From an uncultured virus (IMG/VR IMGVR_UViG_3300021256_000068) (taxonomy: Duplodnaviria > Heunggongvirae > Uroviricota > Caudoviricetes), in the IMG/VR virus record IMGVR_UViG_3300021256_000068: DNA of 59,309 nucleotides. The stretch is one strand, 5' to 3'. The notes beneath the pieces are model-generated. The model was not told the DNA's origin and searched no databases. It saw nothing but the letters and a program-made list of their open reading frames with translations. Positions 2,490 to 53,678 of the stretch are shown here, one piece after another. The position numbers and the translations under genes were made by a program. Position 1 is the first letter of the stretch, and the number at the start of each line of letters is the position of its first letter.

Positions 2490-5400
2490 TTAGTTAAGAG
2501 GATTTCTTCTAATCATCTTTGCTAATCTACGAATTAATTTGTCTTGATATTTAATAGTGTTTACAGTTAATTGACAATTGCCGTCATTACGTAAATCTCT
2601 TGAAATATCAGTTATGAATAATAATTGAGATAATGCTTCATAAATATCATCTCTATCATTTGTGTAATCCTCTGCGGAAATCTTGATACCTTCACCAATA
2701 TGAAGTTCAGGTCCACGATAATACTTAGGATTATAAGTATATTTAGGATTTTCAGTTCCGTCACTATTATCTAATGTTTCAACATCTTGAACTAAATCAA
2801 TTAAAGATATTGAATAGCTCTTTTCAGGGTACTTTTGGTCTTCAAAAGCATACTTTGCCATCGTAAGAAGCTCTTCAGATGTAGTTGCTGAGTCATTAGA
2901 ATATGAAGTTTCAAGGAATAAATATGGATATTCTTCATAGAATGAACGCCATAAATCATCTCGTTTTTGTAATAATAACTCATAATTACTTGTACCAGCA
3001 TCTACAAAGTGGGATGTTAAGTAAGTAATTGCAATACCATTTCAACCAGTATAATCAGGTAAATATAAACCAACAGATTGATTTAAGAAAGTTGCCCAAT
3101 TACATCCACCTGTTTGAATTGTATAGTATGAAATTTTATCCGCAATTTTTGTGAAATATAGATAATTAGTAGATACGTTTTGTGTACGCTCTAACATCTT
3201 ATCTACCTCACTTTGTTGTTCAGTAGAAAGTTGATTATATGTGTATAGTTCACTATTTTCTATTTGAGGAGGTACATCACTTCAAGTAATCATGTACTGT
3301 TTATCAGTAGTTTTGATAATCTTAGGTACATATACGGAATTTAATACTACATTTGTGTTTGTTTTAATAGCTACTTCAAAATGATTAACAACTTTATCTT
3401 GTTTAATACGTCATTCATCAGGAACAAATATATCACATAACAAGCTTGCGGCAGAAGCTTCATTTCAATATAATTGAAGATTTGATTCGATTAATGCCGC
3501 ATGTTCACGAAGTGGAATTAATGAGCTATCTCCAAGAGTATATTCATATCAGAAGTCACCATTAGTTGGATTACTAACTAATGTACTACTATGCTCTGTT
3601 ATAGTTACGTCATAATTAAAATCTGTATATGGAGCATACCCATTAATTGAGGTTGCTGAACTCTCAATATTAAATTGATAATTAATTATATCAGGAGTAA
3701 CTGATTGATAATTATACCTGTACATTCTGACATATTGATTAATCTGTTTGTCAAAAGTGTAATAAGTATATATTTGAGGTACTTTATATAATAAGTTGCC
3801 TAATAGTTGATTAATTGTATACACTCTTTCATCTTTACTATTATACCATTCATAAATGTTATCTTGTAAATGATTACGTAAATCATACTGTAATGCCGCA
3901 GGAGTCATTTTAACTTCTTGTTCAATGTAATATAATTTTTCAACTATATGAGGTTTACTTTGTAGTTCACTGATATTAAATTGTTTGCCATATTGGTCTG
4001 TGATTGTTTCAGTAAATATTTGATTTATTTTTGTTGAAATACTGGTACTTAAATCTTCAAGAACGCCATCAATAATATAATATACAGCATATTTCTTATC
4101 AAAATCATCTTCATCTACATCATCATCTTCGTCTATATCTTCAACTGGAAGCTGAAGTACTTGAGTTCTGTTTAAAATAATTCCTTTATTAATAATATCA
4201 TAATCACTGTATTGATTTAATGTTTCACCAAAACTATGTGTATAAAAATCTGGATTAAGTAAATCAATTACCAATAAATTAATATCATCTGATAGATTAG
4301 CAACTTCACTTGCACGTACTCTCGTATATGTAATAGTTTTTCTATATTTATAATTATTGAAATTTGTAGAATGAGCTATTATATTACCAAAAGTATATGC
4401 TAACGAATTAGCGTCTCCATCTTTGATTGGCTTTATTGAATAAAAATATTCTTTTGGAAAGTCACTCATAAAATCATCAAAAAGTTCATTAGAATCTTTT
4501 GCTACTCGGTATCCATTAAAAGATTGGAATATACCCTTATTACCTAAACTACAACTAGAATAATTAGAAGTATTTTCACTTATACGAGTATAAAAATTTT
4601 GATAATTAGTAGACGTAACTAATGTCATTGAAGTGTTTCCATTATAAATTGTATTAAGTGGGAAATTTTTGAAATATGCACTATGTTTTTTACTGCTTCG
4701 ACTTTTATATGGAGAAAATTGAAGATATAAATTCTCAGATAAGTGAGAATTACTACCTTTATATCCACCTAAGACTAAGAAATCATTACGCATAGCTCGT
4801 CTAAATCATGATTTTAAAGCAGAACCTCCAAACATTTCTATAAAGAAACTTGTAATTTCTCAACCTATACTTATATCTGCAAGTTTTCCTCATCCTAAGA
4901 AATTATTATCTGTGTTTTGGTACTCATTATTTGGATTTGGATATTCTTTATAATCACCAACGTCCGTGTCAATCCAATTGACATTATATAAATCAGACAA
5001 TGATTCTTCTGAATAATCTTTTTTAATTTTTAAATTAGAACCTGCTCTATATAAATAATTCTTTAATATGTCTGATGAGTATATTGGTTGATAAAATACA
5101 AAACCATCACAAGTAGAAGAATTGTCAGGTACAAATTTAATAGTATCTGAATTTAATACAGCATTTGCATTTTGTCCTACATATAAAGCCTTATTTCCTA
5201 ATTGCCAAACAAAGCCAGCTGGTCTCGTGTATGTATGACCATTAACAATAATTTTACTATCACTAAATAGATATATTTTATTTCCATCAAAAGCTATTCC
5301 GTCTTCATATTTTTTATTACATACAAGATAATTACTATCTTTTTCATATATCTTACATTGACAAGGATAATAAACGTTATCAACTTTTATTGCTATATGT

Positions 5401-35951: not shown

Positions 35952-36503
35952 ATGACAAACAAAAACAATTTACAATTATTAGAAAATGCTTTACAAATAG
36001 CAAAAACATTTAATTTAAAATTAAAAGATAACAACATTAATTATCAATATGTAGAATTGAAAAGCCTTTACAATTCATTATTTCAAGCATTAAAAATGGA
36101 CGCTTTCAAGCGTGTTAAAAAGCAATTAAACAATTGTATTAATACAATTGATTATGCAGTAGAAAACGATTTAATATCATTTAATGATTATGTATATATT
36201 AACTATACAAAAAATTATATTAATCGTGGCGTTTTAGTTAGTAGTGTTTTAAAAGCATATACAAACTATTTTGAAAGTATCAATAGAAAAATGAATATAC
36301 ATTTAGTTGATACAAACAACGCTATAAGCGTTAAAAAACAAACTACAAATGAAAATGCAATTACAGTTTGTGATAGTGGTATCTACTTTACAAAAACAAG
36401 CGATTTTGATTTTCACTATGATTTAACAAGTGATAAAAATAAGAAAATCGTTAAAAAACTAACAAACATTAAAAACGATTGTGAGTGCATAGTAGCGTGG
36501 TAG
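35952..36503 (+). CDS. Hypothetical early protein
   Basis: AAGGGG RBS; TAG stop; first gene of the rightward arm. Confidence 0.7.
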   Translation: MTNKNNLQLLENALQIAKTFNLKLKDNNINYQYVELKSLYNSLFQALKMDAFKRVKKQLNNCINTIDYAVENDLISFNDYVYINYTKNYINRGVLVSSVLKAYTNYFESINRKMNIHLVDTNNAISVKKQTTNENAITVCDSGIYFTKTSDFDFHYDLTSDKNKKIVKKLTNIKNDCECIVAW

Positions 36504-36544
36504 TAATACCACGCAAAACACTTGCAATATGAAAGAGGTATAAT

Positions 36545-37021
36545 ATGAATAAACAAGAATTATTAAAGCAATTACACAACGATTTACAAGTATGTAAACC
36601 AAACAAAAAAGAAAGTATCCATTTAATTATTAAAATGCTTAAACATTCAAGCAACGAAATTGATAGTCAATACAATTTAGGTTGCATTGCTGAGTGTATG
36701 ATTAAAGCAATATTCACAAAAGATATTGTAAAGCCATCACCTAAGGGCGTAAATGATTTAAACATTGATTTAACAACAAAACAACAAAATCAATATTTCA
36801 ATGGTATTAGCGTTCACGATTTAGATATTAAATATGTAAATAACTATTCAACTGCACACCAACCAAAAACACCAAAATATTTAGTATGCATAACACCTAA
36901 AGGTTGCTATATGATACATAGCGATAGCGTAGAATATAACAACGATAATAAGATTATATTATCAAGCGTTTACAAAAATGCGATTAAGTTAGATAGATTA
37001 ACAAGAAAGTTAGGGCTTTAA
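36545..37021 (+). CDS. Hypothetical early protein (weak PD-(D/E)xK-like residues)
   Basis: GAGG RBS; G.IAE...ND...DIKY pattern. Confidence 0.6.
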   Translation: MNKQELLKQLHNDLQVCKPNKKESIHLIIKMLKHSSNEIDSQYNLGCIAECMIKAIFTKDIVKPSPKGVNDLNIDLTTKQQNQYFNGISVHDLDIKYVNNYSTAHQPKTPKYLVCITPKGCYMIHSDSVEYNNDNKIILSSVYKNAIKLDRLTRKLGL

Positions 37022-37059
37022 TACAAGCCCTAACAAAACAATAGAAAGAAGGATTTTAT

Positions 37060-37299
37060 ATGTATAAGGTAGAATATAAAGAAGAAGTAAAACTAGGTAT
37101 CATTATCACAACTGAACAACCAACTTTTAAAAAATTAATAGCGTGGATAAAAAACCATTTGATAGGATATTATCCAATTACAACTTGCACTATTAAAATC
37201 GAGCGTGTACACCCAAGCGGAGCAAGTGAGATTATTGCCGACGGAAACGGACAAGAAGTATTAGATTTAATACGAGTGGCAGACTATGGGCTAGATTAG
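37060..37299 (+). CDS. Hypothetical early protein
   Basis: AAGGA RBS; TAG stop. Confidence 0.65.
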   Translation: MYKVEYKEEVKLGIIITTEQPTFKKLIAWIKNHLIGYYPITTCTIKIERVHPSGASEIIADGNGQEVLDLIRVADYGLD

Positions 37300-37673
37300 T
37301 CTGCCCGACGGAATGCGGCGAAACTGCCTTTATATTTCCGTCGTTCCCGACGGAACGTGGCGAGAAGCGGCGGCAAGCAGCCACGAACTTTTGGGCGGTT
37401 TTTCCGTCGGGTGTGATATTTTTTGAAAGTTTTGGGTGGCGTTCCGTCGGGTGATAAAATATTTCATTCCGTTCCGTCGGGTTGGGTTGCGTTTTGTGCC
37501 GTTCCGTCGGGTGATTAAATTATTCGTGCGTGTGAATTGTTCCGTCGGGTATGATAAAAAATTGGTGCGTTCCGTCGGGATAGTATATTTATTTTATCTT
37601 TTGATATTGTTTCATAGAAAAGAAAGAAATATAAAAGAAAGAAAAAATTTTTTAAAAAAATATAAAATAACTA

Positions 37674-37794
37674 TTGACATTGTTTTTTAATTTGCTATAA
37701 TAGAGTTGTAAGTTGAAAGCGAAAGACTTACAAAAACAAAAAATAAAAAATCTTAAAAATATCTATTGACAAACAAAATTGTTAATGATATAAT
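37674..37794 (+). promoter_or_regulatory. Two tandem sigma-A-type promoters
   Basis: TTGACA-16-TATAAT (37674) and TTGACA-17-TATAAT (37766). Confidence 0.85.
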
Positions 37795-37823
37795 AAGGGT
37801 GTAAATGAAAGGGGAAATGAATT

Positions 37824-38123
37824 ATGAAAAACACTCAAAAAACAAACATTATCAATGGTATTACAATTAAGGAAATCAAGCCTTACACTGAATATGTAGC
37901 AACTCTACACGTTAAAAAAGGCGAAAAGGTAGTCAATAAAGTAGTTATCTTTATGCAGACTAATGACGGACTTGTAGCACTTAAAGGCTATGACCAAAAT
38001 CAAAAATTATATGGAGAGCCTAACAAAATCCATATTAGCGAAAAGAATAACACTATTCGAGTAGCAACTGAACAAGATTTTAGAGATTTTGGAAAACACA
38101 TTAATCTAATATCAAGACCATAA
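37824..38123 (+). CDS. Hypothetical early protein
   Basis: GAAAGGGG RBS; TAA stop. Confidence 0.7.
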   Translation: MKNTQKTNIINGITIKEIKPYTEYVATLHVKKGEKVVNKVVIFMQTNDGLVALKGYDQNQKLYGEPNKIHISEKNNTIRVATEQDFRDFGKHINLISRP

Positions 38124-38188
38124 GGCTAAGGGCGAAAGCCCTTAACCACAACTAAAAATATGCTTAAAAAGGAAAAGGAGAAAATAAT

Positions 38189-38539
38189 ATGAAAAGCGTA
38201 GTAGTTAGAGAAGTTAATTCATCAAGAGTAAATGACAAGGTTGTTGAGGTTTTAATTGAAGCAACTAATCAATTCACAGGAGAGATTTATGAAGCAAAGG
38301 GTTATGCTCGTTGCTCAAGCAAGGACAAGTTTATATTTGAAAAAGGTAAGGCTATTGCTGGTATAAGAGCCGTAAGAAAGGTATTACAACATATGCAAAG
38401 AGATTATAAAATCTTTATTGCAAAGCCATATATTTCAAACCCGACGGAATTATATTATAGAAAATGTATCAATGAATTACTAGCAATTCACGACGACTTA
38501 CAATTCGCAAATGAGTCATTAACATTAATGCAATTATAA
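38189..38539 (+). CDS. Phage protein with dsRBD-like fold motif
   Basis: GYARCSSKDKF...GKAIAGIRA resembles the common phage G.A.C...D.F....G..IA..RA family. Confidence 0.55.
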   Translation: MKSVVVREVNSSRVNDKVVEVLIEATNQFTGEIYEAKGYARCSSKDKFIFEKGKAIAGIRAVRKVLQHMQRDYKIFIAKPYISNPTELYYRKCINELLAIHDDLQFANESLTLMQL

Positions 38540-38546
38540 AAATATC

Positions 38547-38578
38547 AAAAGACCCGACGGAAAGGGTCTTTTTTCTTT
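38547..38578 (+). terminator. Intrinsic terminator incorporating the CCCGACGGAA motif
   Basis: AAAAGACCC-GACGGAAA-GGGTCTTTTTT. Confidence 0.8.
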
Positions 38579-38986
38579 GCTCCGTCAATTACCCGACGGA
38601 ACGTGGCGCCGAATTGAAGCTGCAGCTCGTGATTTTTTCGGCGGTTTCCGTCGGGTGATTGTGAGATTGCGGAATTCCGTCGGGTGGTGATTCGTTTGCG
38701 TTGTTCCGTCGGGTTGGGTTACGTTTTGTGTCATTCCGTCGGGTAGTATTATTTATTTTATTTTTTATTAGGTTTATTTATAAAAGAAAAGAATAATAAG
38801 AAAAGAAAAAAATTTTTAAAAAAATATAAAATAAGTATTGACAATGTTTTTTATAGTGATATAATGAATGTGTAAGTTGAAAACGAAAACTTACAAAAAT
38901 AAAAAATTAAAAAACTTAAAAATACTACTTGACAATAGAAAAATTAAGTAGTATAATTAAGGTGTAAAGTGAAAGGGGAAATGAAT

Positions 38987-39439
38987 ATGTTAAAAAGAAA
39001 AAAGTATATCACTATTTATGTTGATATGGACGACACTATCGCTGATTTCAATGGTGTTGAAAACGCCGTTGCTAGATTTAGAGAAGAGCCTAATTTCTTC
39101 TTTAAGTTAAAGCCACTAGAAAAAAACTTAAATGCTATTAAACAAGCACTAGAAAACCCTGTTTTTAGAGTGTTTATCTTAACTGCAAGTCCTAGTGAAC
39201 GTTGCGATAATGACAAGCGTTTATGGTTAGCAAAATATTTGCCAAAACTACCAAAGAAAAACATTATATGTTGTAGAATAGGCGAGAATAAAGGCGATTA
39301 TATGAAATATAAAGGTGCTTTATTAGATGACTATGGCAAGAATGTAAGACAATGGCAAGAAACTACTAAATGCAACGCATACAAAATCGAGTATGACGGA
39401 AAAATTGAAAGTGTGTTAAATATGTTAGTTGCTAGATAA
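38987..39439 (+). CDS. HAD-family 5'(3')-deoxyribonucleotidase-like protein
   Basis: VDMDDTIADF, ILTASP, K and LLDDY HAD motifs. Confidence 0.85.
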   Translation: MLKRKKYITIYVDMDDTIADFNGVENAVARFREEPNFFFKLKPLEKNLNAIKQALENPVFRVFILTASPSERCDNDKRLWLAKYLPKLPKKNIICCRIGENKGDYMKYKGALLDDYGKNVRQWQETTKCNAYKIEYDGKIESVLNMLVAR

Positions 39440-39475
39440 TTCTAGCAACTAGCACAAAATAGAAAGGAGAAAACT

Positions 39476-39691
39476 ATGATAGTAGATACATACAAAGTTA
39501 TGAATATTCGTTTAAGTCGAGAAGAATGTAAGACTTTAGAAGAAGCACTTAACATTATAAGAAACATAAATCGAGAAATAGACGAATGTCACGACGCCGA
39601 CGAAGTCCGTTTAAGTGACGATGATGATGCAGACTTACTTAATAAAATTAGTAATGCTGTTGACGAATTAGGTTGTTTAATAGAATTCTAA
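39476..39691 (+). CDS. Small acidic hypothetical protein
   Basis: AAAGGAG RBS; TAA stop. Confidence 0.7.
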   Translation: MIVDTYKVMNIRLSREECKTLEEALNIIRNINREIDECHDADEVRLSDDDDADLLNKISNAVDELGCLIEF

Positions 39692-40126
39692 AAATTACCC
39701 GACGGAAGTTGGGTTTTCTTTTTCCGTTAAATTTTCCCGGCGGAAATTTTTGGGCGGTTGTCCGTCGAGTTTGATTATTATTGGAAAGTTCCGTCGGGTA
39801 TGAATGAGATTTTGCCGCGTCCGTCGGGTTAGATTATTTTCTAGTGTGTGTATGTGTGCGTGTGAAAAAAGAAAAATAAATAAAAAGAAAAAGTTTTTGT
39901 TGACAAGTTTTTGTTTTGTGTTATAATGTAATTGTGAGGTGAGGAAAAATGAAAAATAAAAATAAAGTAATTCCTAATAAATTTCATTTAAATATACAAA
40001 TTAGATATAGAACTCTTATTCAAGAGAATAAGAAAATATATAATAGAAAAAAATTTAAAAAAGTTATTGACACTGAAAATTATTAGTGGTATAATTAAGT
40101 TGTAAGATATGAAAGGGGAAATAATT

Positions 40127-40408
40127 ATGGAAAACTTACAAGAGAAAAAAGGAAATAAAGTTAAAAGGGCGTTCAATATTGAACACAAATATAAGTTTGA
40201 GTTTAATGATATTAGAGCAGTTTTAACTGTATTAAATGTTATACTTATTATGACTTTTGGATTAAGCATTGCGTGGTTTGGTCTAGCAATAAGTTTAATC
40301 GGTTTTATTAAAGATTTGGCTACTGATAGACATATTAATGGTATTGTTATGCACTTATCTACAATAGCATTAAATGTTTACTTTATCATATTAGCAATGG
40401 GAGCGTGA
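40127..40408 (+). CDS. Small membrane protein (ends at TGA; would extend to 40444 if read through)
   Basis: Three hydrophobic segments; GAAAGGGG RBS. Confidence 0.7.
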   Translation: MENLQEKKGNKVKRAFNIEHKYKFEFNDIRAVLTVLNVILIMTFGLSIAWFGLAISLIGFIKDLATDRHINGIVMHLSTIALNVYFIILAMGA

Positions 40409-40412
40409 TTTT

Positions 40413-40736
40413 ATGATTATATTAGAAATAAAACAATCTTATAAAAATGGTTGTGATATAAAGCAAATATCAATTGAAATTGATAATGAGTATCGAGTAT
40501 TTAATAAAATATTAAAAACAAGAAAAACAATTGAAGCAATAAAAGAAGAAATAGAGTTTGCTCTTGAAAGAATTATTGCAGACTATACAAAAGATTATAG
40601 AAATACTGATAATATAACCTATGATTATTTTATTACTTCTAACGATGATAGATTATATCAATATACAATTTATAACTTATTAGAAAAGAATATTCGTATT
40701 TCAAAAATCACTCGCAACTATGAAGATGTAGCTTAA
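40413..40736 (+). CDS. Hypothetical early protein
   Basis: GGAG RBS; TAA stop followed by a motif-containing terminator. Confidence 0.65.
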   Translation: MIILEIKQSYKNGCDIKQISIEIDNEYRVFNKILKTRKTIEAIKEEIEFALERIIADYTKDYRNTDNITYDYFITSNDDRLYQYTIYNLLEKNIRISKITRNYEDVA

Positions 40737-41029
40737 CCCGACGGATGTTGGGTTTTTCTTTTGTCTTTTCGTCGACCCGACGGAACGTGGCGGGGTTTGG
40801 CCGCTGCGAGCTGTGAACGTTTGGGCGGTTTCCGTCGGGTGCGTAAATAAATTAAAAAGTTTGCGGCGTTCCGTCGGGTAATTGTGCGGAGAAAATTCCG
40901 TCGGGTGAATGAAAATTTTGCCGCTTTCCGTCGGGTAAGATTATTTCTTATATATTATTTTTTATATTGTTTCATTTAGATAAAGAAAAGAATATATATA
41001 AGAAAAGAAAAATTTTTATCTTTTTTCTA

Positions 41030-41423
41030 TTGACATTAAAAAATAAAGTATTATAATAATAAATGTAAGTTGCGAATGACTTACAAAATAAATTAAAATA
41101 TTTTAAAAATAATTATTGACAATATAAAAATATTTGATATAATTAAATTGTAAGTTAAACAAAAACAACTTACAAAAAATATTTTAAAAAACTTAAAAAT
41201 ACTACTTGACAATAAAAAATAAAGTAGTATAATATAAGTGTAAGTTAGAGATAACTTAAAAAATTATATCACTTAAAAAACTTAAAAATAATTTAAAAAA
41301 GTTATTGACAAGTTAAAAATTAAGTGATATAATAAAGGTGTAAAAGATAAGAGATACCTTAAAATCTCAAATCTTAAAAAATTAAAAATACCACTTGACA
41401 AGCCAAATCAAGTATGGTATAAT
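41030..41423 (+). promoter_or_regulatory. Five tandem sigma-A-type promoters
   Basis: TTGACA at 41030, 41116, 41206, 41305 and 41395, each with TATAAT 16-17 bp downstream. Confidence 0.9.
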
Positions 41424-41486
41424 AAAAATGTAAAAGGAAAGGGTGCTAGTAAGACCTGATACGGCATAGCATAAAGGTGTAAAATT

Positions 41487-41789
41487 ATGGCAAAAACAAC
41501 TTGGAGTATGAATGACACTCAAAAGGCATTCTTAGGTGCATTATCTAATGGTGGTTTAACATTAGAGCAAATCAATAATGGTAGAGAAACTGAGATTAAG
41601 ACAGGCTCTATTAATACATTAATCGGTAAGGGTTATGTAACAACTGAAGATGCTGATTTCCCAGCAACTGAAACTTTAGTGGTTAAGTATCCCGACGGAA
41701 CTGAAATCACTAAGACTAAGGACAAGACTGTATCTCGTAAGGTCTATACCTTAACTGATAAGGCTAAAACTGAATTAGGGATTGAATAA
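41487..41789 (+). CDS. Winged-helix-like protein, paralog 1
   Basis: W.MN..QK.F..AL...IKTGSINTL..KGYV, long beta hairpin, RKVY.L; homologous to 42747, 46494 and 49487. Confidence 0.65.
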   Translation: MAKTTWSMNDTQKAFLGALSNGGLTLEQINNGRETEIKTGSINTLIGKGYVTTEDADFPATETLVVKYPDGTEITKTKDKTVSRKVYTLTDKAKTELGIE

Positions 41790-42250
41790 TCCCTAATCGG
41801 TTAAACCGATAAACTCAAACCCGACGGCATGCGTGTCGGCGGTAGCCGAAAGGACTAGGTTTCCTCCCCTTATGCCCTAGTCCGTTCGAGTACCACTGAC
41901 AATGGTATGTTCCGTTGAACCCGACGGAGTCACCAAAGGGCGTATACTTCTGCGAAAAGTAGGTTCTTATGAGATTTTTATTGCCAAAAATAAAAAACTC
42001 CATTGGTATGGTGCAACATACTTTCATCTTGCAGGTAAGTGCAAGAGGTCTTCAATTGATTTATGCGACTCCTTAATAAGTCAATGCCGCGAACCCGACG
42101 GTTGATCAAATCGGGTTGACTTGGCAGTTCATCCTTGGAATTGTCTGCTATACCAAAAGTGCAGGTTGACAGGTGGGAAAGTTGCCATCTGCTAAGGCAA
42201 AAGAGAGTGATTGCTGAAAGACCCGACGGACGCGTCGGTGTTTTTTCTTT
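41790..42250 (+). ncRNA. Putative structured RNA downstream of wHTH paralog 1
   Basis: No credible ORF; dense hairpins; shares elements with 43167-43750; ends in a terminator. Confidence 0.5.
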
Positions 42251-42505
42251 TCCCCTTGGGAACGTGGCGACCCGGCGGAAGCAAGCTGCGTAAACTTTCA
42301 GGCGGTTTCCGTCGGGTACGTGTTAAAAATGGGTCGTTCCGTCGGGTGAGTAAGTTTTGCCGCGTAATACGTTTCCGTCGGGTATCATTCCAAATTGGTC
42401 GTTTCCGTCGGGATACTATTATATTTATTTAGTTTAATAGGATTAAATAAAAAAAGAAAAATAAACAAAAGAAAAAAGATTTTTAAAAATTTTATAACTT
42501 TTTTA

Positions 42506-42717
42506 TTGACAATGTTTTTTAAAGTGATATAATGAAATTGTAAAGTTGAGATGACAAAAAATCTTAACTTGAAAAAAATTAAAAAAATTAAAAATATCAC
42601 TTGACATAAAAAATTAAAGTGATATAATAAATGTGTAAATAGATACAACGACTTAAAAATACTAGTTGAAAAAAGTTAAAAATATCTATTGACAAAGAAA
42701 ATCAGTTATGGTATAAT
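42506..42717 (+). promoter_or_regulatory. Three tandem sigma-A-type promoters
   Basis: TTGACA at 42506, 42601 and 42689, each with TATAAT. Confidence 0.85.
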
Positions 42718-42746
42718 AAAGATGTAAGTTGATAGGAGGTATAATT

Positions 42747-43166
42747 ATGGCAACTACACAAAAAACTACTACTACTACTCGTAAGGAATGGCAACCTAAC
42801 GAAAAACAAACTATGTTTATGAACGCTTTAAAGGTGCTAGGCACAGCAACTTTTAGAGTAATCAAGAATTATATTCTTGAAAATAACGGCGAAACTATCG
42901 CAACAGGCTCAGTCAATGTATTGACTACAAAGCAATATGTCGGCACAAGAGAAGAGTTGTTTGATGTTGAAACAACAACAACATATCACTACCCAACGGG
43001 CGATATTGTTGAAACTAAAAAGTCTAAAAAGACTGAAAAGGTTTACTTCTTAATCGCTGAAGCCGATAGACAAACATTTGCACAGACAAATGCAAAGGTC
43101 GATAAAAAGGACATCCCGGCGGAAGATGACCTAGATGAAGATGACCTAGTCGATATGGAAGATTAG
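42747..43166 (+). CDS. Winged-helix-like protein, paralog 2 (acidic tail)
   Basis: EWQPNEKQTMFMNAL...IATGSVNVL...EKVYFL; AGGAGG RBS. Confidence 0.65.
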   Translation: MATTQKTTTTTRKEWQPNEKQTMFMNALKVLGTATFRVIKNYILENNGETIATGSVNVLTTKQYVGTREELFDVETTTTYHYPTGDIVETKKSKKTEKVYFLIAEADRQTFAQTNAKVDKKDIPAEDDLDEDDLVDMED

Positions 43167-43750
43167 AAATAATCTTCCAGCCCTACGGGGTATGAGCAAA
43201 CCCGACGGAACAGGCTTAGGTTGGCAACCTATAAAGGTTTCCTATCAGGCGGGATAGTGCCTAACTATCTGGGAAGAATAGCCATTTCATACTTAAACGT
43301 TGCAAGAGTGCGGAAAGAATTAACTTGATACACTTATCGAAATACCCGACGGATTGGCAAACGCGAGTTGCTCGATAACTTAACGGCAATTAGTAATATT
43401 TCAGGGTTTCAATAGGCTAATGAAACTCGTCCTACCCGACGGAAGTCGGCGGTAGCGAAAAGGATTGGACTTCCCCTTTCCAATTCCTTTCGGTGCCGAC
43501 GGACACCAATTAAATACATACACAATACCTTAGACAAGTAGTTGTGCCGTTTTCGGTGGAGCGTCACCTTTATCGTAAAAATTAAAAAACGGGGTAGAGA
43601 GGGTGACCTACTAAAAAAATGCCTCGTATATGTTATGTACGAAAACCATAACGCCCATTCTGCGAAAGTGAATGCGGTTTCGGAGTACCGTTGAACCCGA
43701 CGGAGGGCACTAGAGAGTCTTGAAAAATCTAGTGCCTTTTGTGCTTTTAT
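43167..43750 (+). ncRNA. Putative structured RNA downstream of wHTH paralog 2
   Basis: No ORF; many hairpins; terminator GGCACTAGA...TCTAGTGCCTTTT. Confidence 0.5.
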
Positions 43751-44007
43751 TGTTTCCGTCGGGTTTGAACGTGGTCGCCGTTTTCAAGCAGGGCTTATAA
43801 ATTTTTAGGCGGTTTCCGTCGGGTAGTTCCTTTAATTGTGTTGTGCGGATTTCCGTCGGGTTTGGTTCTAATTCGAATTTCCGTCGGGTATTAATCATTT
43901 TTCGCCGCAACCGTCGGGTTAGCTTATTTACATTTTAATTTTTATATTGATTAAATAAATAAAAGAAAGAAATAAACAAAGAAAGAAAAAGTTTTTTATT
44001 TTTTCTA

Positions 44008-44214
44008 TTGACATACTAAAAATATTTGATATAATAAGTGTGTAAGTTGATAAAACAAACGACTTAAAAAATAATTTGAAAAAAATTAAAAATAATACTT
44101 GACATTAAAAATTAAAGTGTTATAATTAAGTTGTAAGTTGAAAACGACTTACAAAAAATAAAATTAAAAAAATTAAAAATTATACTTGACATTAAAAATC
44201 AGTTATGATATAAT
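44008..44214 (+). promoter_or_regulatory. Three tandem sigma-A-type promoters
   Basis: TTGACA at 44008, 44099 and 44186, each with TATAAT. Confidence 0.85.
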
Positions 44215-44245
44215 GAAAGTGTAAAAAGGAAAGGGTGTATTTATT

Positions 44246-45013
44246 ATGAATATCTGTGTATTTGATACTGAAACAGTAGGAAAGGTTAGTCAAGATTTAC
44301 TTAATGTAGGCTATAAAATCATTGACTTAAATGTGCAAAAAGGCACTTATGAAACTCTTGTAGAGCGTGATTATTTAGTGGGAAAACTATTTAATAACAC
44401 TATCTATATGATTAATGATGATTTTGTAGGTGCTGAAAAATACGGCAAGTATGTATTAGCATTAAAGCAAAAGAAAATCATTAAGCGTGGTATTTCTCAA
44501 ATTATGGAAACTATGAGAAATGACTTTAAAAAGCATAATGTATTATTTAGTTATGCTTATAATAACAAGTTTGATATGGATAAGTTTGAAAAAACTTGCA
44601 ATCAATTAGAGTGCGAAAATCCTATTAAAACTGCAACTTGCTTTGATATATGGGCTTATGCTTGTCAATATATTGTTGATACTCCTGAATATCAAGAATG
44701 GGCTAAAAATAACGAGGTATTTACTGAAAGTGGTGCTTATATCTCAACTAGCGTTGAAAGTGTAATTAAGTATTTAAACAACGATTTAGAGTTCGTTGAA
44801 GACCATACGGCATTAAGTGATGTGCAATGGGAAACAAAAATACTTGTGGAATGTGTAAAGCGTGGTTGTGATATTACAAGACCAATGCCATTAAAAAGAT
44901 ATTTCGCAAGTGAAAAAATAAATAAGAAAACTATCAAACTTCCCGACGGAAAAGAGATAGAAGTTGAATATCAAAAATCTTATGAAAGAAACGGGGTTAT
45001 CTCTTATAAGTAA
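44246..45013 (+). CDS. DEDDh 3'-5' exonuclease
   Basis: FDTET (Exo I), AYNNKFD (Exo II), HTALSD (Exo III). Confidence 0.85.
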   Translation: MNICVFDTETVGKVSQDLLNVGYKIIDLNVQKGTYETLVERDYLVGKLFNNTIYMINDDFVGAEKYGKYVLALKQKKIIKRGISQIMETMRNDFKKHNVLFSYAYNNKFDMDKFEKTCNQLECENPIKTATCFDIWAYACQYIVDTPEYQEWAKNNEVFTESGAYISTSVESVIKYLNNDLEFVEDHTALSDVQWETKILVECVKRGCDITRPMPLKRYFASEKINKKTIKLPDGKEIEVEYQKSYERNGVISYK

Positions 45014-45066
45014 GAGATAGCCCATACCCCTTCCCGACGGAAGTGGGCGGTTGAAAGGAGCAAATT

Positions 45067-45351
45067 ATGGAACAATTATTATGGGAATGTATTTATAAAA
45101 ATACAGATGATAATCAAATATATGCTGAAAGATTTGAGGCAACTAATGCAGTTAATGCACTATATCAACTATCACAATATCTTAATGATAAATGTGCTTT
45201 CGTACCATTAGGCGTAAAACCAATAATATGTAGTACAAACATTAGAAGTCTAAAATATGCTCGTTGGTTAAATGACGCTCGTAAGTTTCACAGTGATATT
45301 GAGGGAACAATAAGATATTATGAAAATGATTTAATCGGGGTTATTGAATAA
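45067..45351 (+). CDS. Hypothetical early protein
   Basis: AAAGGAG RBS. Confidence 0.65.
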   Translation: MEQLLWECIYKNTDDNQIYAERFEATNAVNALYQLSQYLNDKCAFVPLGVKPIICSTNIRSLKYARWLNDARKFHSDIEGTIRYYENDLIGVIE

Positions 45352-45373
45352 CCCCGACGGAAAGGAGAAAAAT

Positions 45374-45595
45374 ATGATAACTGTATATGTAGTAATTAAT
45401 TCACAAGATGGAGAAGTGCTTGGAGTATACCTTTCTGAAGATAGTGCAATAGGTGCTATCATACAATATGCTGTCGATAATAAACTTGATTTTTCAACAA
45501 GAACTTTTGAAAGAAGTGAATATGACCCAACTTATAGTTATGTTACAATAGATGGTTGCGAACATACTATTGTCGAAAGACAATTAATTAACTAA
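45374..45595 (+). CDS. Hypothetical early protein
   Basis: AAAGGAG RBS; VYVV...VLGVY.SE..A pattern common in small phage proteins. Confidence 0.65.
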   Translation: MITVYVVINSQDGEVLGVYLSEDSAIGAIIQYAVDNKLDFSTRTFERSEYDPTYSYVTIDGCEHTIVERQLIN

Positions 45596-46217
45596 CCCGA
45601 CGGTTAGTTTTTTCTTTTGGGCGGTTTCCGCCGGGTCTAATTTCAATAAGGTTTACCGCCTAAATTCCGTCGGGTCTTCCCCAAATATTATTAGTCATTT
45701 TCATCATTTTCACAAATTATATTCGTTATTTCATTCCATTTTTCGAATAATATTTTATTGTAAGCGTTTTCACATAATTTTTATTCAATTTTCAGTATTT
45801 TTCATTAATCCCACTTATCCGTCGGGTTGGCGCCGCACATCACAAACAAGTAAGCGTTTTCTGTCTTTTGCCGTTCCGTCGGGTGACATCATGAAAACGT
45901 TTTCAGTAAAGTTAGTCTTGACAAACTCTTTCTCCTAAATTCTTCTGCTTTTCTCCTATGTAAGCGCTTACAATGGGAGAAAACCGTGATTATCATCGTC
46001 CGCCGGGTAGAATGAAAACGTTTTCACTAATTTTCTCTTGACAGCGTCCGCCGGGTTTGTAGTGTTTTTTATTGCAGTACAAATCGGGGCTTGTTGACCG
46101 CGCTTTACGGACACTTGGTGAGGACACCAAAGGTGTCCGACCGTGGCGGACAGCAGCAGCAGCAGCTCGTAAACTTTCGCACAAAAATGAAAACGTTTTC
46201 ATAAAACCTGCAAAGTA

Positions 46218-46462
46218 TTGACAAAGCGCGCGAAAGGTTGTATAATATAAGTGTAATAAGGTAGAAGAAGTAATAATAAAACCTTGTTCGGCAATATCAT
46301 ACACGCGTTCGTGAGAAAATACAAAAATTAAAGTAAAAAAGTATTGACTTACCCCGCAAACTATGATATAATATAAGTGTAATAAGGTAGTAAGAGATAT
46401 AAAAAAATTAAAAAAATTAATTGAAAATATATCTTGACAGACCTTATGAATTGTGGTATAAT
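46218..46462 (+). promoter_or_regulatory. Three tandem sigma-A-type promoters
   Basis: TTGAC(A/T)-17-TATAAT at 46218, 46344 and 46434. Confidence 0.85.
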
Positions 46463-46493
46463 ATAATTGTAAAGGAAAGGTAAGGTAATAATT

Positions 46494-46769
46494 ATGGCAC
46501 AAAAGACATGGACAATGAATGAAACTCAAAAGGATTTTATGGACACTTTAAAGGAAATGGGTAGAGCCGTAACTTTAATGGAAATCGAAGCAGTAACTGG
46601 TAAGGCTTTCAAGACTGGTACTATCAACACATTAGTAGCTAAGGAATTAGTAAAGACTGAAGATGTTGATTTAACTTACACTGAAACTAGAACTTTCAAG
46701 TTCGGCGATAAGGAAACTACTTTAACTGCAACTAAGACTATCACTCGTAAGGCTTACAGATTAGCCTAG
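46494..46769 (+). CDS. Winged-helix-like protein, paralog 3
   Basis: MAQKTWTMNETQKDF...FKTGTINTLVAKELV...RKAYRL. Confidence 0.7.
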   Translation: MAQKTWTMNETQKDFMDTLKEMGRAVTLMEIEAVTGKAFKTGTINTLVAKELVKTEDVDLTYTETRTFKFGDKETTLTATKTITRKAYRLA

Positions 46770-47528
46770 TCCTCTTGGCTTTAAGGAAACCGACACGCCA
46801 CTAAACAACGGAACCTTTACTATTCGCTCATGCTGGAGGCAATAGTTCATATACATCTAGCAATATCTAGGGAACAGTAATGTTCCCTTTTTTCTATTGC
46901 CAAAATGTTGGTCCGTCGGGTGATAAACAAATAAAATTCAGGTTTTTCCATTATTTTTCTAATTTTATTCGTATGAAAACGTTTTCATCAAAATTTTATT
47001 GTAAATTGATTCCTTTTGACCGAATTTTGTTCGTTTTTGCATCATTTTCATTATTTTCACCACATTTTATGCGCATGAACCCGACTTTTCGCCGCAATCA
47101 CACAATAATTTGAAACATTTTGCATATTATAACTTAAAAGCAGCTGTAATTTGCAGGTTTTTAGTAAAAATTTTGGGTTTCATCTGGGACCGAGGCGCGC
47201 ATTTTACGGGGCAATTTCTAGTCATTGCGAGTGAAATAACATTGCGATCCTTTTCTATTCACTGTGGAGTGTTTTCTAAATATCACACGTAAACGCTAAA
47301 AATGGCAGGAGAAAAAGAAAATGCGGGAAAAGTGAAGAAATTTTACGGATTTTTGAAAATTTTGTTGACAAACACGTAAACTTTGGCGCACGTGTATACC
47401 ACTCCCCTAGTCAATATTTCTTGATATTCCAATATTTTTCCCTAAAATCATCAATTTTTCATTGACAAACAGCAAAAACTAATATATAATAATATTGTAA
47501 TAAGATAAAGGAGATAAAGAAAATAATT

Positions 47529-47756
47529 ATGGAAAAGAAGGTCTATCAAGTCAGATATTCAATCAAAGATAAAGAAACCAAAAGAGTAAAAACTAGACGT
47601 ATCTATAATGTAATGGCAACAGACCTAAAAGATATAGAAGACATATTGCAAGAAAAATGGTTTATGTATGAAATAGAGATAAATGATGTATTGAATGAAT
47701 GGAGTTTAGAAGAGTACATCAAAGCAAAAGATAATACAGTATTGGTATATAGATAG
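47529..47756 (+). CDS. Hypothetical early protein
   Basis: Promoter at 47462; TAG stop. Confidence 0.65.
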   Translation: MEKKVYQVRYSIKDKETKRVKTRRIYNVMATDLKDIEDILQEKWFMYEIEINDVLNEWSLEEYIKAKDNTVLVYR

Positions 47757-47815
47757 GAAAGAAAGGAAAGCCGAAGCGGAGGTCCTCAGACCGAAGCGGA
47801 GGCGTGGTAATACAA

Positions 47816-48157
47816 ATGAAACAAAAATATATGAGAGTAGAATTAGGAACTGGATATTGCGGCGAGGATTCAGTACAATACTACAAGTTAGCGGATCAAA
47901 ACCAGATTGAACCAACCCAACAAGATTGGGAACGTTATCAAGAAATGGCATTAGACCATAATGAAAGTTATGGTCGTGAATTTGCTGATTGGTGTGAAGA
48001 ACACGATTTAGACCCAGATGAAGATAATGGTGAATATTGGGATGAATATGCAATCCATTGTGCTGAACACGGCTACATTGAAATCATTGAAGCAGACCCA
48101 GAAGATGAAGATGATTCAACATTTGATGATGGTTTTTTAGAGGATTGTGAATGGTGA
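47816..48157 (+). CDS. Highly acidic small protein (ends at TGA; 3 more codons if read through)
   Basis: D/E-rich with spaced aromatic residues; GGAGG upstream. Confidence 0.7.
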   Translation: MKQKYMRVELGTGYCGEDSVQYYKLADQNQIEPTQQDWERYQEMALDHNESYGREFADWCEEHDLDPDEDNGEYWDEYAIHCAEHGYIEIIEADPEDEDDSTFDDGFLEDCEW

Positions 48158-48275
48158 GCGGCGTAAAATCTTATTGATAATAAAGCAATTTTTATTGACA
48201 AACACCAGATTTTATAATATAATATAATTGTAAAAGATAAGATAAATATATTATTTATTTTAATGGAGGTTAGTT

Positions 48276-53370: not shown

Positions 53371-53448
53371 GCCCGATTAGTCGAACCGGTCAAGACACCA
53401 CCCTTTCAAGGTCGGAGATCGAGGGTTCAACTCCCTCCTCGGGTACCA
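53371..53448 (+). tRNA. tRNA-Glu (TTC), with one bulged base in the anticodon stem
   Basis: GCCCGA/TCGGGT acceptor; CCACC-CTTTCAA-GGT(C)GG; GAGGG-TTCAACT-CCCTC; encoded CCA. Confidence 0.8.
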
Positions 53449-53601: not shown

Positions 53602-53678
53602 TGCAGTTGAGTGAAACGGATAATCATACAAGGCTCATACCCTCGTGATAATGGGTTCGACTCCCATAACTGCGTCCA
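53602..53678 (+). tRNA. tRNA with CAT anticodon (Met/fMet; Ile2 not excluded)
   Basis: TGCAGTT/AACTGCG acceptor; CTCATAC loop; ATGGG-TTCGACT-CCCAT; encoded CCA. Confidence 0.85.

Follow-up and report, generated by a model that had tools for sequence, protein, structure and literature searches.

A 59,309-nucleotide stretch of DNA from an uncultured virus (IMG/VR record IMGVR_UViG_3300021256_000068; Caudoviricetes), here called the window, carries a polar 11-letter word, ACCCGACGGAA, that recurs in seven modules across its early gene region. Forward copies lie mainly at gene ends, and reverse copies form phased arrays between the terminator of one operon and the promoter stack of the next. The word is nearly invariant among relatives whose spacers drift, differs in distant clades, and bounds genes that have been swapped between lineages. 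We tentatively favor the explanation that its copies are orientation-dependent sites of a co-evolving phage protein, which would bound and silence early operons in a stoperator-like manner, within shuffling cassettes that resemble promoter-early stem-loops (PeSLs).

The word and its modules

The window is part of a low-GC (~30%) tailed phage whose family comes from the ruminant gut. To the left of ~35.4 kb it has leftward structural genes (tape measure, portal, capsid-like), and from 35.95 kb onward small genes in the rightward direction. The 10-letter core of the word, CCCGACGGAA, occurs exactly 38 times in the window (13 on the + strand and 25 on the − strand), with 0.00 expected from 100 shuffles. 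When one mismatch is allowed, the count is 52 (23 + and 29 −; 0.60 expected, shuffle maximum 5), all within 37237-46920. When two are allowed, it is 66, and the six copies outside that interval all have two mismatches.

A sequence-only reading of the window had reported about 50 polar copies of a GC-rich 10-mer in 37238-46920. The number and the confinement were borne out, and the length was not; a logo from 88 forward and 125 reverse copies in four lineages gives an asymmetric 11-mer with a leading A. For the pooled logo and spacing counts, 4 of the 27 oriented contigs were used, each a long contig standing for a distinct lineage; the remaining contigs entered maps, alignments and the breakpoint test only. 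Incidentally, GC-rich loci returned by the pattern scans (e.g. L007, L008) were rejected as chance or coding repeats.

Orientation switches from + to − at seven places (37346/37402, 38592/38646, 39736/39789, 40776/40830, 42271/42307, 43696/43754 and 45596/45626), which agrees with the seven modules described from the sequence. Likewise, the in-gene translations IADGN (37237), NPTEL (38440), YPDGT (41691) and LPDGK (44942) are in frame, the coordinates 37442/37472/37502 and 38646/38675/38704/38734 given for the spacings are right, the word is seen at five terminator-like hairpins as had been claimed, and an AT-rich tract and then a promoter stack are found behind each array. What had been overlooked is the systematic placing of forward copies at stop codons. 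Mapped through the window and its relatives, the word is restricted to one block and orientation-biased rather than evenly spread. The features are as follows.

35952-45595, +: early small-gene region served by the modules
37237-37579: module 1 word cluster; forward copies at 37237 (1 mismatch, in a gene), 37304 and 37346; reverse copies at 37402, 37442, 37472, 37502, 37540 and 37570
38440-38743: module 2; forward at 38440 (in a gene), 38553 (terminator 38547-38572) and 38592; reverse at 38646, 38675, 38704 and 38734
39698-39828: module 3; forward at 39698 (terminator 39697-39714) and 39736 (1 mismatch); reverse at 39760 (2 mismatches), 39789 and 39819 (1 mismatch)
40737-40935: module 4; forward at 40737 (1 mismatch, abutting the stop codon, terminator 40735-40754) and 40776; reverse at 40830, 40869, 40896 and 40926
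41691-42412: module 5; forward at 41691 in winged helix-turn-helix (wHTH) gene A; reverse at 42307, 42337, 42373 and 42403
41820, 41920, 42222 and 42271: forward variants of module 5, within a structured non-coding stretch
43115-43918: module 6; forward copies or variants at 43115, 43201, 43345, 43435 and 43696; reverse at 43754, 43814, 43851, 43879 and 43909 (2 mismatches)
44942-46055: module 7, at the region end; forward at 44942 (in a gene), 45033, 45353 (joint of stop codon, word and Shine-Dalgarno site) and 45596 (2 mismatches, terminator 45590-45609); reverse at 45626, 45665, 45817 and 45874; CCCGGCGGAC variants at 45998 and 46046
46911-46920, −: lone reverse copy (1 mismatch) behind terminator 46869-46888 of wHTH gene C
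38547-38572, 39697-39714, 40735-40754, 42223-42238 and 45590-45609: word-bearing terminator-like hairpins
37346-37411, +: example of the F2-R1 unit, an inverted word pair with starts 54-56 bp apart
38592-38655, 40776-40839, 42271-42316 (short form) and 43696-43763: further F2-R1 units
45349-45376, +: standard within-operon joint, TAA + word + AGGAG + ATG
37674-37794, +: promoter stack 1, two promoters with 12/12 consensus letters
38838-38957 (2), 39900-40095 (2), 41030-41423 (5), 42506-42717 (3) and 44008-44214 (3): further stacks, with numbers of 12/12 promoters
46218-46462: last stack, two perfect promoters and one with 11/12
41487-41789, +: wHTH paralog A, 100 aa, a candidate reader only
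42747-43166 and 46494-46769: wHTH paralogs B and C, candidate readers only
38981-39439: NT5C-like deoxyribonucleotidase, early region
44246-45013: exonuclease-like gene, early region

Forward copies lie on the strand of the genes and promoters and take part in two standard joints. The joint within operons reads TAA, word, AGGAG, ~7 nt and ATG. The joint that ends operons reads TAA, ACCCGAC-GGAA-GTTGGGT and a T-run, where the left arm and GGAA loop of an intrinsic-terminator-like hairpin come from the word. The next forward copy follows 37-39 bp on in 12 of 60 adjacent forward pairs and opens the F2-R1 unit. Within this unit, the distance from forward start to first reverse start is 54 bp in 12 of 29 cases (53-58 bp in 17), and the inner ends, AACGTGG and TTTGGGCGG, are conserved around a variable middle.

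Reverse arrays sit behind terminator-like hairpins and hold four copies in 18 of 31 cases. The spacing of neighboring reverse copies is exactly 30 bp in 40 of 96 pairs, 27-31 bp in 54 and 34-40 bp in 22. The start of the last reverse copy lies 103-104 bp upstream of the first −35 hexamer in 9 of 31 arrays, and 94-114 bp upstream of it in 18. The tract between array and promoters is A/T-rich with AAAG-type repeats, and the whole gap from terminator to promoter, with the word array in it, measures 250-350 bp. Sigma-70 promoters with 12/12 consensus letters number 21 on the + strand and none on the − strand (37674-48223), at 2-5 per stack; a simple promoter pattern counted over the entire window gives 34 and 0, respectively.

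Two further ideas on this geometry were rejected. Curved DNA is not indicated by the A-run distances in 22 spacers, which recur every 4 nt (AAAG repeats) and show no periodicity of 10-11 bp. A hairpin at every reverse unit is not indicated by the flanks, which carry little information except at the first reverse copy.

Besides the word, a conserved start, GTAAGTTG..., follows nearly every perfect promoter and pairs with ...CTTAC to form a small leader hairpin (e.g. 37702-37735, 38866-38890), and the upstream promoters of a stack would drive just these short leaders.

Relatives, selection on the letters, and words of distant clades

A scan with a two-copy pattern returned one viral contig of 79 kb (G001), three short contigs binned in a metagenome-assembled genome (MAG) and numerous short metagenome contigs of low GC content, all uncultured and 75-98% identical to the window. 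G001 holds 38 exact copies (12 forward, 26 reverse), every one in 67.2-76.4 kb. The module scaffold is common to four lineages. Where the window can be aligned with three lineages, word positions are 96.5%, 99.4% and 100% identical, compared with 81.9%, 86.4% and 75.5% for the other non-coding positions and 96.8-98.2% for the promoter hexamers.

An alignment of module 2 from 11 contigs resolves this further. Retained copies are invariant, with the sole exception of one letter in the first reverse copy of one contig, and the spacers have substitutions and indels including a 19-bp insertion; one reverse unit is lost in three contigs. Inside wHTH gene A, the codons CCC GAC GGA of the copy at 41691 are kept in all eight distinct sequences. 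CCC accounts for only 2 of the 33 proline codons of the early genes, and a paralog varies synonymously at the matching site. Because copies are invariant amid drifting spacers and these codons are kept against codon preference, the alignments argue that the letters of the word are themselves under selection.

A separate difference among close relatives concerns the first early gene (183 aa). Contig L081, otherwise 95-98% identical to the window, carries at 2499-3056 an allele only 57% identical to 35952-36503, which is a local allele replacement.

An alignment search with the wHTH proteins led to genomes of 115-130 kb (CheckV 100% complete), with homologs 39-50% identical, that lack CCCGACGGAA. 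Three distant genomes (G004, G005 and G006, with loci L197, L193 and L195) carry gcAGACGGAA. AGACGGAA occurs in G004 79 times forward and 5 times reverse (4 and 3 for a control pattern), nearly all in 33.5-40.4 kb, and the corresponding ratios are 36:5 in G005 and 41:2 in G006. These copies lie on the sense strand of early genes at about one per 75 bp, within genes in all frames as well as between them. A fourth genome, G007 (locus L192), has the word GGTCAAAAGAAA, found 25 times forward and 4 times reverse where 0.45 are expected; the strand ratio of GTCAAAAG in this locus is 25:4. Several GGTCAAAAGAAA copies lie 7-21 bp upstream of a −35 hexamer. All these words are confined to a block of 5-7 kb. 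The families common to the early block of all clades are the wHTH paralogs, the deoxyribonucleotidase-like and exonuclease-like proteins, and one further gene only.

In G004, G005 and G007, the block closes with a terminator whose loop contains the word. Behind it lie either two to three reverse copies or a forward/reverse pair that abuts, and after these an (AGC)n tract, further repeats and a promoter stack. The window has an equal layout at 45.6-46.5 kb. On account of this shared block end, the window clade looks like a lineage in which the end-of-block element has been multiplied behind every operon.

Two other repeats were seen in these blocks. In every clade, the (AGC)n tract occurs where the early block ends in non-coding DNA (window 46150-46170; L192 12880-12930; L197 9405-9415 and 9575-9590), and a shorter form, AAGCAGC or AAGCTGC, lies within F2-R1 units. 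L197 also repeats GTAGGTTA 26 times, partly in ribosome-site contexts.

How the word may be read

The reverse arrays behave like protein sites on duplex DNA, given their helical register, preferred promoter distance and position behind terminators. We infer that ACCCGACGGAA is a cis-acting polar recognition site of a sequence-specific DNA-binding protein. The reader would most likely be phage-encoded and evolve together with the word, as a word that differs between clades (CCCGACGGAA, gcAGACGGAA, GGTCAAAAGAAA) is what a co-evolving reader leads one to expect. The stoperator-like, PeSL-based explanation is preferred because the strand rule and the clade-specific word recall stoperators, and the entire module recalls PeSLs.

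In this explanation, the sites would punctuate an early, host-takeover region driven by stacked perfect host-type promoters. Single forward sites would mark where genes end: some at the stop codon itself, some between it and the following ribosome site, and some forming the left arm and GGAA loop of a terminator. Behind each operon terminator would follow the fixed-distance inverted pair, about four reverse sites in helical register, the A/T-rich tract and the next stack. Clusters bound by the protein would act as two-way boundaries, stopping read-through and antisense polymerases according to orientation in stoperator fashion, and as the protein accumulates it may also help to silence the early promoters, which are very strong. 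Nearly every exchangeable gene ends in this word, which could therefore double as short homology for cassette swaps between relatives, as with PeSLs.

Several observations weigh against this explanation. Stoperators use one orientation, but both occur here, with no rule for which of them blocks. Copies in the distant clades lie mostly inside coding sequence, and such dense in-gene copies suit a transcript mark at least as well as a roadblock. The flanks of forward and reverse copies differ, yet in both the G-rich flank is on the + strand, which hints at single-stranded reading. Finally, the wHTH paralogs are the only putative DNA-binding family of the region common to all clades, but their presumed recognition helix, KTGSINTL, is identical in clades with differing words.

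The wHTH paralogs are thus candidates by association only. They are located behind the largest promoter stacks. Their predicted fold (predicted local distance difference test, pLDDT, 86.7) has three helices and a very long beta hairpin, and its best matches, PadR, LmrR and MarR families, are weak (E 1.3e-3, template-modeling (TM) score 0.58). They belong to no Pfam or PHROG family; their 27 homologs in a large protein collection are all unnamed, none was found in cultured phages, and their profile matches no PDB sequence. A more distant homolog, P0025, gave no useful IMG/VR relatives. A two-domain repressor (HTH plus stoperator domain) was not found among the early proteins by Pfam or PDB-sequence matches. 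Of the DNA-level binding array proposed from the sequence alone, the array is backed by its reverse geometry and by the invariant word amid drifting spacers, and the wHTH fold is supported, but the paralogs as binders are not, since they show no link to the word and their recognition helix is constant across clades.

A serious though doubtful alternative is a mark at the RNA level, in which the sense word is read in early transcripts by an RNA-binding protein or an endoribonuclease. The mark could serve timed decay of early messages, their protection or preferential use, or a sponge for a host RNA-binding protein, and the reverse copies would be antisense partners that pair with read-through RNA. 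In T4, RegB acts at GGAG in early messages. Such a mark fits the distant clades, whose copies keep largely to the gene strand (79:5, 36:5 and 41:2). It also fits the in-gene copies in all three frames and the others directly adjoining ribosome sites and start codons, the restriction of the word to one temporal gene class, the GGAA of forward copies in terminator loops, the + strand G-richness of both kinds of flank, and the word-like copies within a conserved structured RNA-like stretch with compensatory changes; strong transcription of the region would multiply the copies. However, it gives no reason for arrays behind terminators, for the 30/40-bp register or for the promoter distance. Among the promoters listed, no leftward one with at least 9 of 12 letters lies beside the arrays, where it would transcribe them in the sense of the word. 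Nor does Rfam 15 give a match in 37200-47300 up to E = 1; its matches in the whole window are two tRNAs, Glu-TTC (53371-53448) and Met-CAT (53602-53678).

The structured stretches merit description in their own right. Two GC-rich non-coding stretches, 41790-42300 and 43167-43750, follow wHTH genes A and B, are kept in relatives with compensatory helix changes, and hold word-like copies as well as GGCGGTAGC twice, with no match in Rfam. They are probably a new structured RNA.

Gene exchange at the word bears on a third possibility. Between lineages, 35-61% of coding positions can be aligned, compared with 58-87% of non-coding positions, so the regulatory scaffold is more durable than the genes it serves. 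Gene families g9, g12 and g16 lie in different modules or operons in different relatives, at word-bounded joints. Family g1 occurs in one to three tandem copies, mostly with the word after them, although two of eight g1 copies in three tandem arrays lack it. The small genes after the exonuclease-like gene also differ between contigs. A 366-bp g16 cassette (40397-40763) is 98.4% identical in two contigs, where it stands behind another gene, within flanks only 83-87% identical. Homology breakpoints fall within 25 bp of a forward copy in 11 of 36 cases, compared with 12.7% in permutations (p ~0.004). The breakpoints depend on one another, however, and some that recur are distant from every copy (e.g. 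40397, 38946-38952). These results uphold the idea of cassette shuffling raised in the sequence-only reading, and gene content at module boundaries, which it proposed to check, does vary between relatives. Shuffling does occur at the word, yet it is not the full explanation.

That the word is nothing but a recombination joint, its cassettes spread and homogenized between promoter-terminator modules as in PeSLs with no factor reading it, we consider improbable. The modules are mutually 65-75% alike across 300-500 bp, the relocated families and the g16 cassette are what such a process would leave, and PeSLs are described as a precedent (PMC2839356). However, homogenization would keep whole units alike, and just the 11 letters are invariant while the spacers diverge. 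Reverse arrays in register, in-gene copies kept against codon preference and the ~80 in-gene copies of distant clades are left unexplained, as are the many breakpoints elsewhere.

Also unlikely, on balance, is a polar signal that a DNA-tracking machine would follow, Chi- or KOPS-like in taming a nuclease or steering a translocase, or a self mark on the first-entering DNA, by which the phage would spare its own early DNA while destroying that of the host. The word is polar with converging copies and is confined to 5-10 kb of genomes of 115-130 kb, and in one relative the early region came out of assembly as a contig of its own, 11.7 kb long. Deoxyribonucleotidase-like and exonuclease-like genes in all clades, with a weakly nuclease-like gene, recall the T5 pre-early set, and how T5 DNA escapes its own degradation of host DNA is described as an open question (10.1101/866236). 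Against this, orientation reverses every 1.2 kb in the window's clade, and the promoter register points to transcription. A host-read word should moreover be enriched in the host, but in 120 other genomes of a candidate host order word counts resemble those of a control pattern, with one exception of 27 scattered copies; the host order itself is uncertain.

This order is that of a 2.8-Mb MAG (G002) in which the three word-bearing short contigs were binned. In G002, word clusters are on short phage-like contigs only, plus five single copies. The word is therefore not a repeat of the candidate host order, a possibility left open by the sequence-only reading. MAG binning is weak evidence for a host, and the phage's relatives point to Firmicutes. 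No near-identical DNA was found in cultured phages; comparison of the large terminase and a capsid-region protein places the phage closest, among cultured ones, to siphophages of Firmicutes with genomes of 120-165 kb, at 26-39% identity. In the 50 kb examined of a distant cultured relative, Phass-1, there is no comparable enriched word. Public RNA runs contain only 5-11% of the sampled words.

Other elements accompany the early block. A perfect palindrome, (A)TGAAAACGTTTTCA(T), has five copies (35706, 45891, 46012, 46187 and 46973) beside promoters at both edges of the early block. It fits the consensus of the catabolite-responsive element (cre/CcpA) of Firmicutes, and may thus be an operator of LacI type in a phage with a Firmicute host. 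Outside the block, another word, TTGCGGCGAAA, is enriched, on the + strand at e.g. 48398, 48721, 48900, 49991, 51063 and 57684 and on the − strand at e.g. 31391 and 32671. TTGCGGCG occurs seven times in 47-59.3 kb (0.03 expected), mainly on the local gene strand and often within genes. The conserved 158-aa early protein (36545-37021) resembles PD-(D/E)XK nucleases (Hjc, restriction enzymes) weakly in structure, with a best Foldseek E of 0.012, TM 0.25-0.35, one of five models confident, and invariant Asp and Lys residues; a nuclease of this type is a lead only, from predicted structure. For the first two early genes, PDB sequence searches gave no match, and the ESM Atlas gave nothing usable except one weak restriction-enzyme lead.

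Iteron-type replication origins, with initiator sites beside an A/T-rich unwinding tract, are very improbable: although every module has in-register direct repeats beside a very A/T-rich tract, there are seven arrays per genome, each with a terminator and promoter stack, their period is 30 bp (iterons have ~20 bp) with unrelated spacers, the same word stands at stop codons and inside genes, distant clades are almost without arrays, and no initiator gene was recognized nearby.

A wider reading, doubtful but worth stating, is that a family of gut siphophages of ~115-130 kb marks the 5-10 kb that it expresses, and perhaps injects, first with a one-way address word particular to each lineage, which a fast-evolving early protein would read so as to pass or stop polymerases by orientation. 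If so, a lytic phage would possess a stoperator-like device that insulates and then silences its strongest promoters, and the same protein coat could mark DNA as self while early nucleases destroy host DNA.

Early regions decide host takeover, and their control is known for few model phages only. The present case offers an exact and easily mutated word, a testable geometry (orientation, 30-bp register, promoter distance), three natural word variants in related phages and a small set of proteins that are candidates for its reader. Should the word prove to be a polar stop or boundary site, the stoperator principle would extend from prophage immunity to lytic timing, and it would be explained how stacks of perfect promoters avoid running into one another. 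If it is instead read in RNA or as a self mark, it would bear on the retirement of early messages or on how phages that destroy host DNA spare their own. In any case, the joint of stop codon, word and ribosome site is a natural compact part for building gene cassettes.

Comparison with known systems

In the literature on strand-specific intergenic repeats in early regions, we found no description that matches the element. The initial impression that it is not a described element needs qualification, as the module resembles PeSLs and the one-way sites resemble stoperators, and stands insofar as neither family fits fully.

Chi and KOPS are polar words read by the host and dispersed over host chromosomes. 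They resemble the present word in that it is short, its orientation matters and its copies converge. Unlike Chi, KOPS or DUS-like words, it is not enriched in the candidate host order, changes between related phages and flips with each operon. Integron attC sites, inverted repeats at the 3′ ends of cassettes, need a tyrosine integrase, and recombination of this type was rejected, PF00589 being found in none of five relatives, four of them complete (the search control was positive in 14 of 14 genomes).

The first-step-transfer (pre-early) region of T5 is described as having its repeats, DnaA boxes and palindromes, in one non-coding stretch (10.1101/866236). As far as that account goes, the early block is similar in genome size (~115-130 kb), in its 5-10 kb of small early genes including a deoxyribonucleotidase-like one, and in a non-coding end rich in repeats and palindromes. 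The NT5C-like and exonuclease-like genes kept in all clades recall the pre-early nucleotide-catabolism genes of T5. However, no sequence relationship was found, and the word stands at every operon of the window, whereas the T5 repeats described are in one stretch.

PeSL cassettes of T4-type phages are reported to mediate modular shuffling (PMC2839356, PMC4122927). According to these reports, they share with the modules a repeated composite of terminator and consensus sigma-70 promoter, an A/T-rich upstream tract, a concentration among small fast-changing early genes, and cassettes at which relatives diverge in gene content. In size the modules exceed PeSLs several-fold, with stacks of 2-5 promoters and a long gap between terminator and promoter instead of one compact motif, and have in addition an invariant 11-mer in two orientations with fixed spacings. 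The phages that host PeSLs in these reports are T4-type myoviruses, while here there are tape-measure and portal matches and the relatives are large siphophages.

Stoperators of cluster A mycobacteriophages are described as asymmetric 13-mers in short intergenic spaces and at promoters, whose orientation tracks transcription, whose function is lost upon reversal and whose sequence varies with the repressor (PMC9283540, PMC6550527). The word differs from them in being confined to the early region of an apparently virulent phage, as no integrase was found in the five relatives, and in having, in the window clade, both orientations, phased reverse arrays and in-gene copies, all as putative sites. 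Stoperators, as described, are bound by the monomeric immunity repressor of a temperate phage, of which no homolog was recognized among the early proteins here. As to the single orientation of stoperators, the three distant genomes with gcAGACGGAA come close, as does the forward set of the window clade, where 29 of 52 copies are reverse. What the word shares with the stoperators described for L5 and TipsytheTRex is a short asymmetric site in many copies, a placement near promoters and in short intergenic spaces, an orientation tied to transcription and a sequence that varies with lineage.

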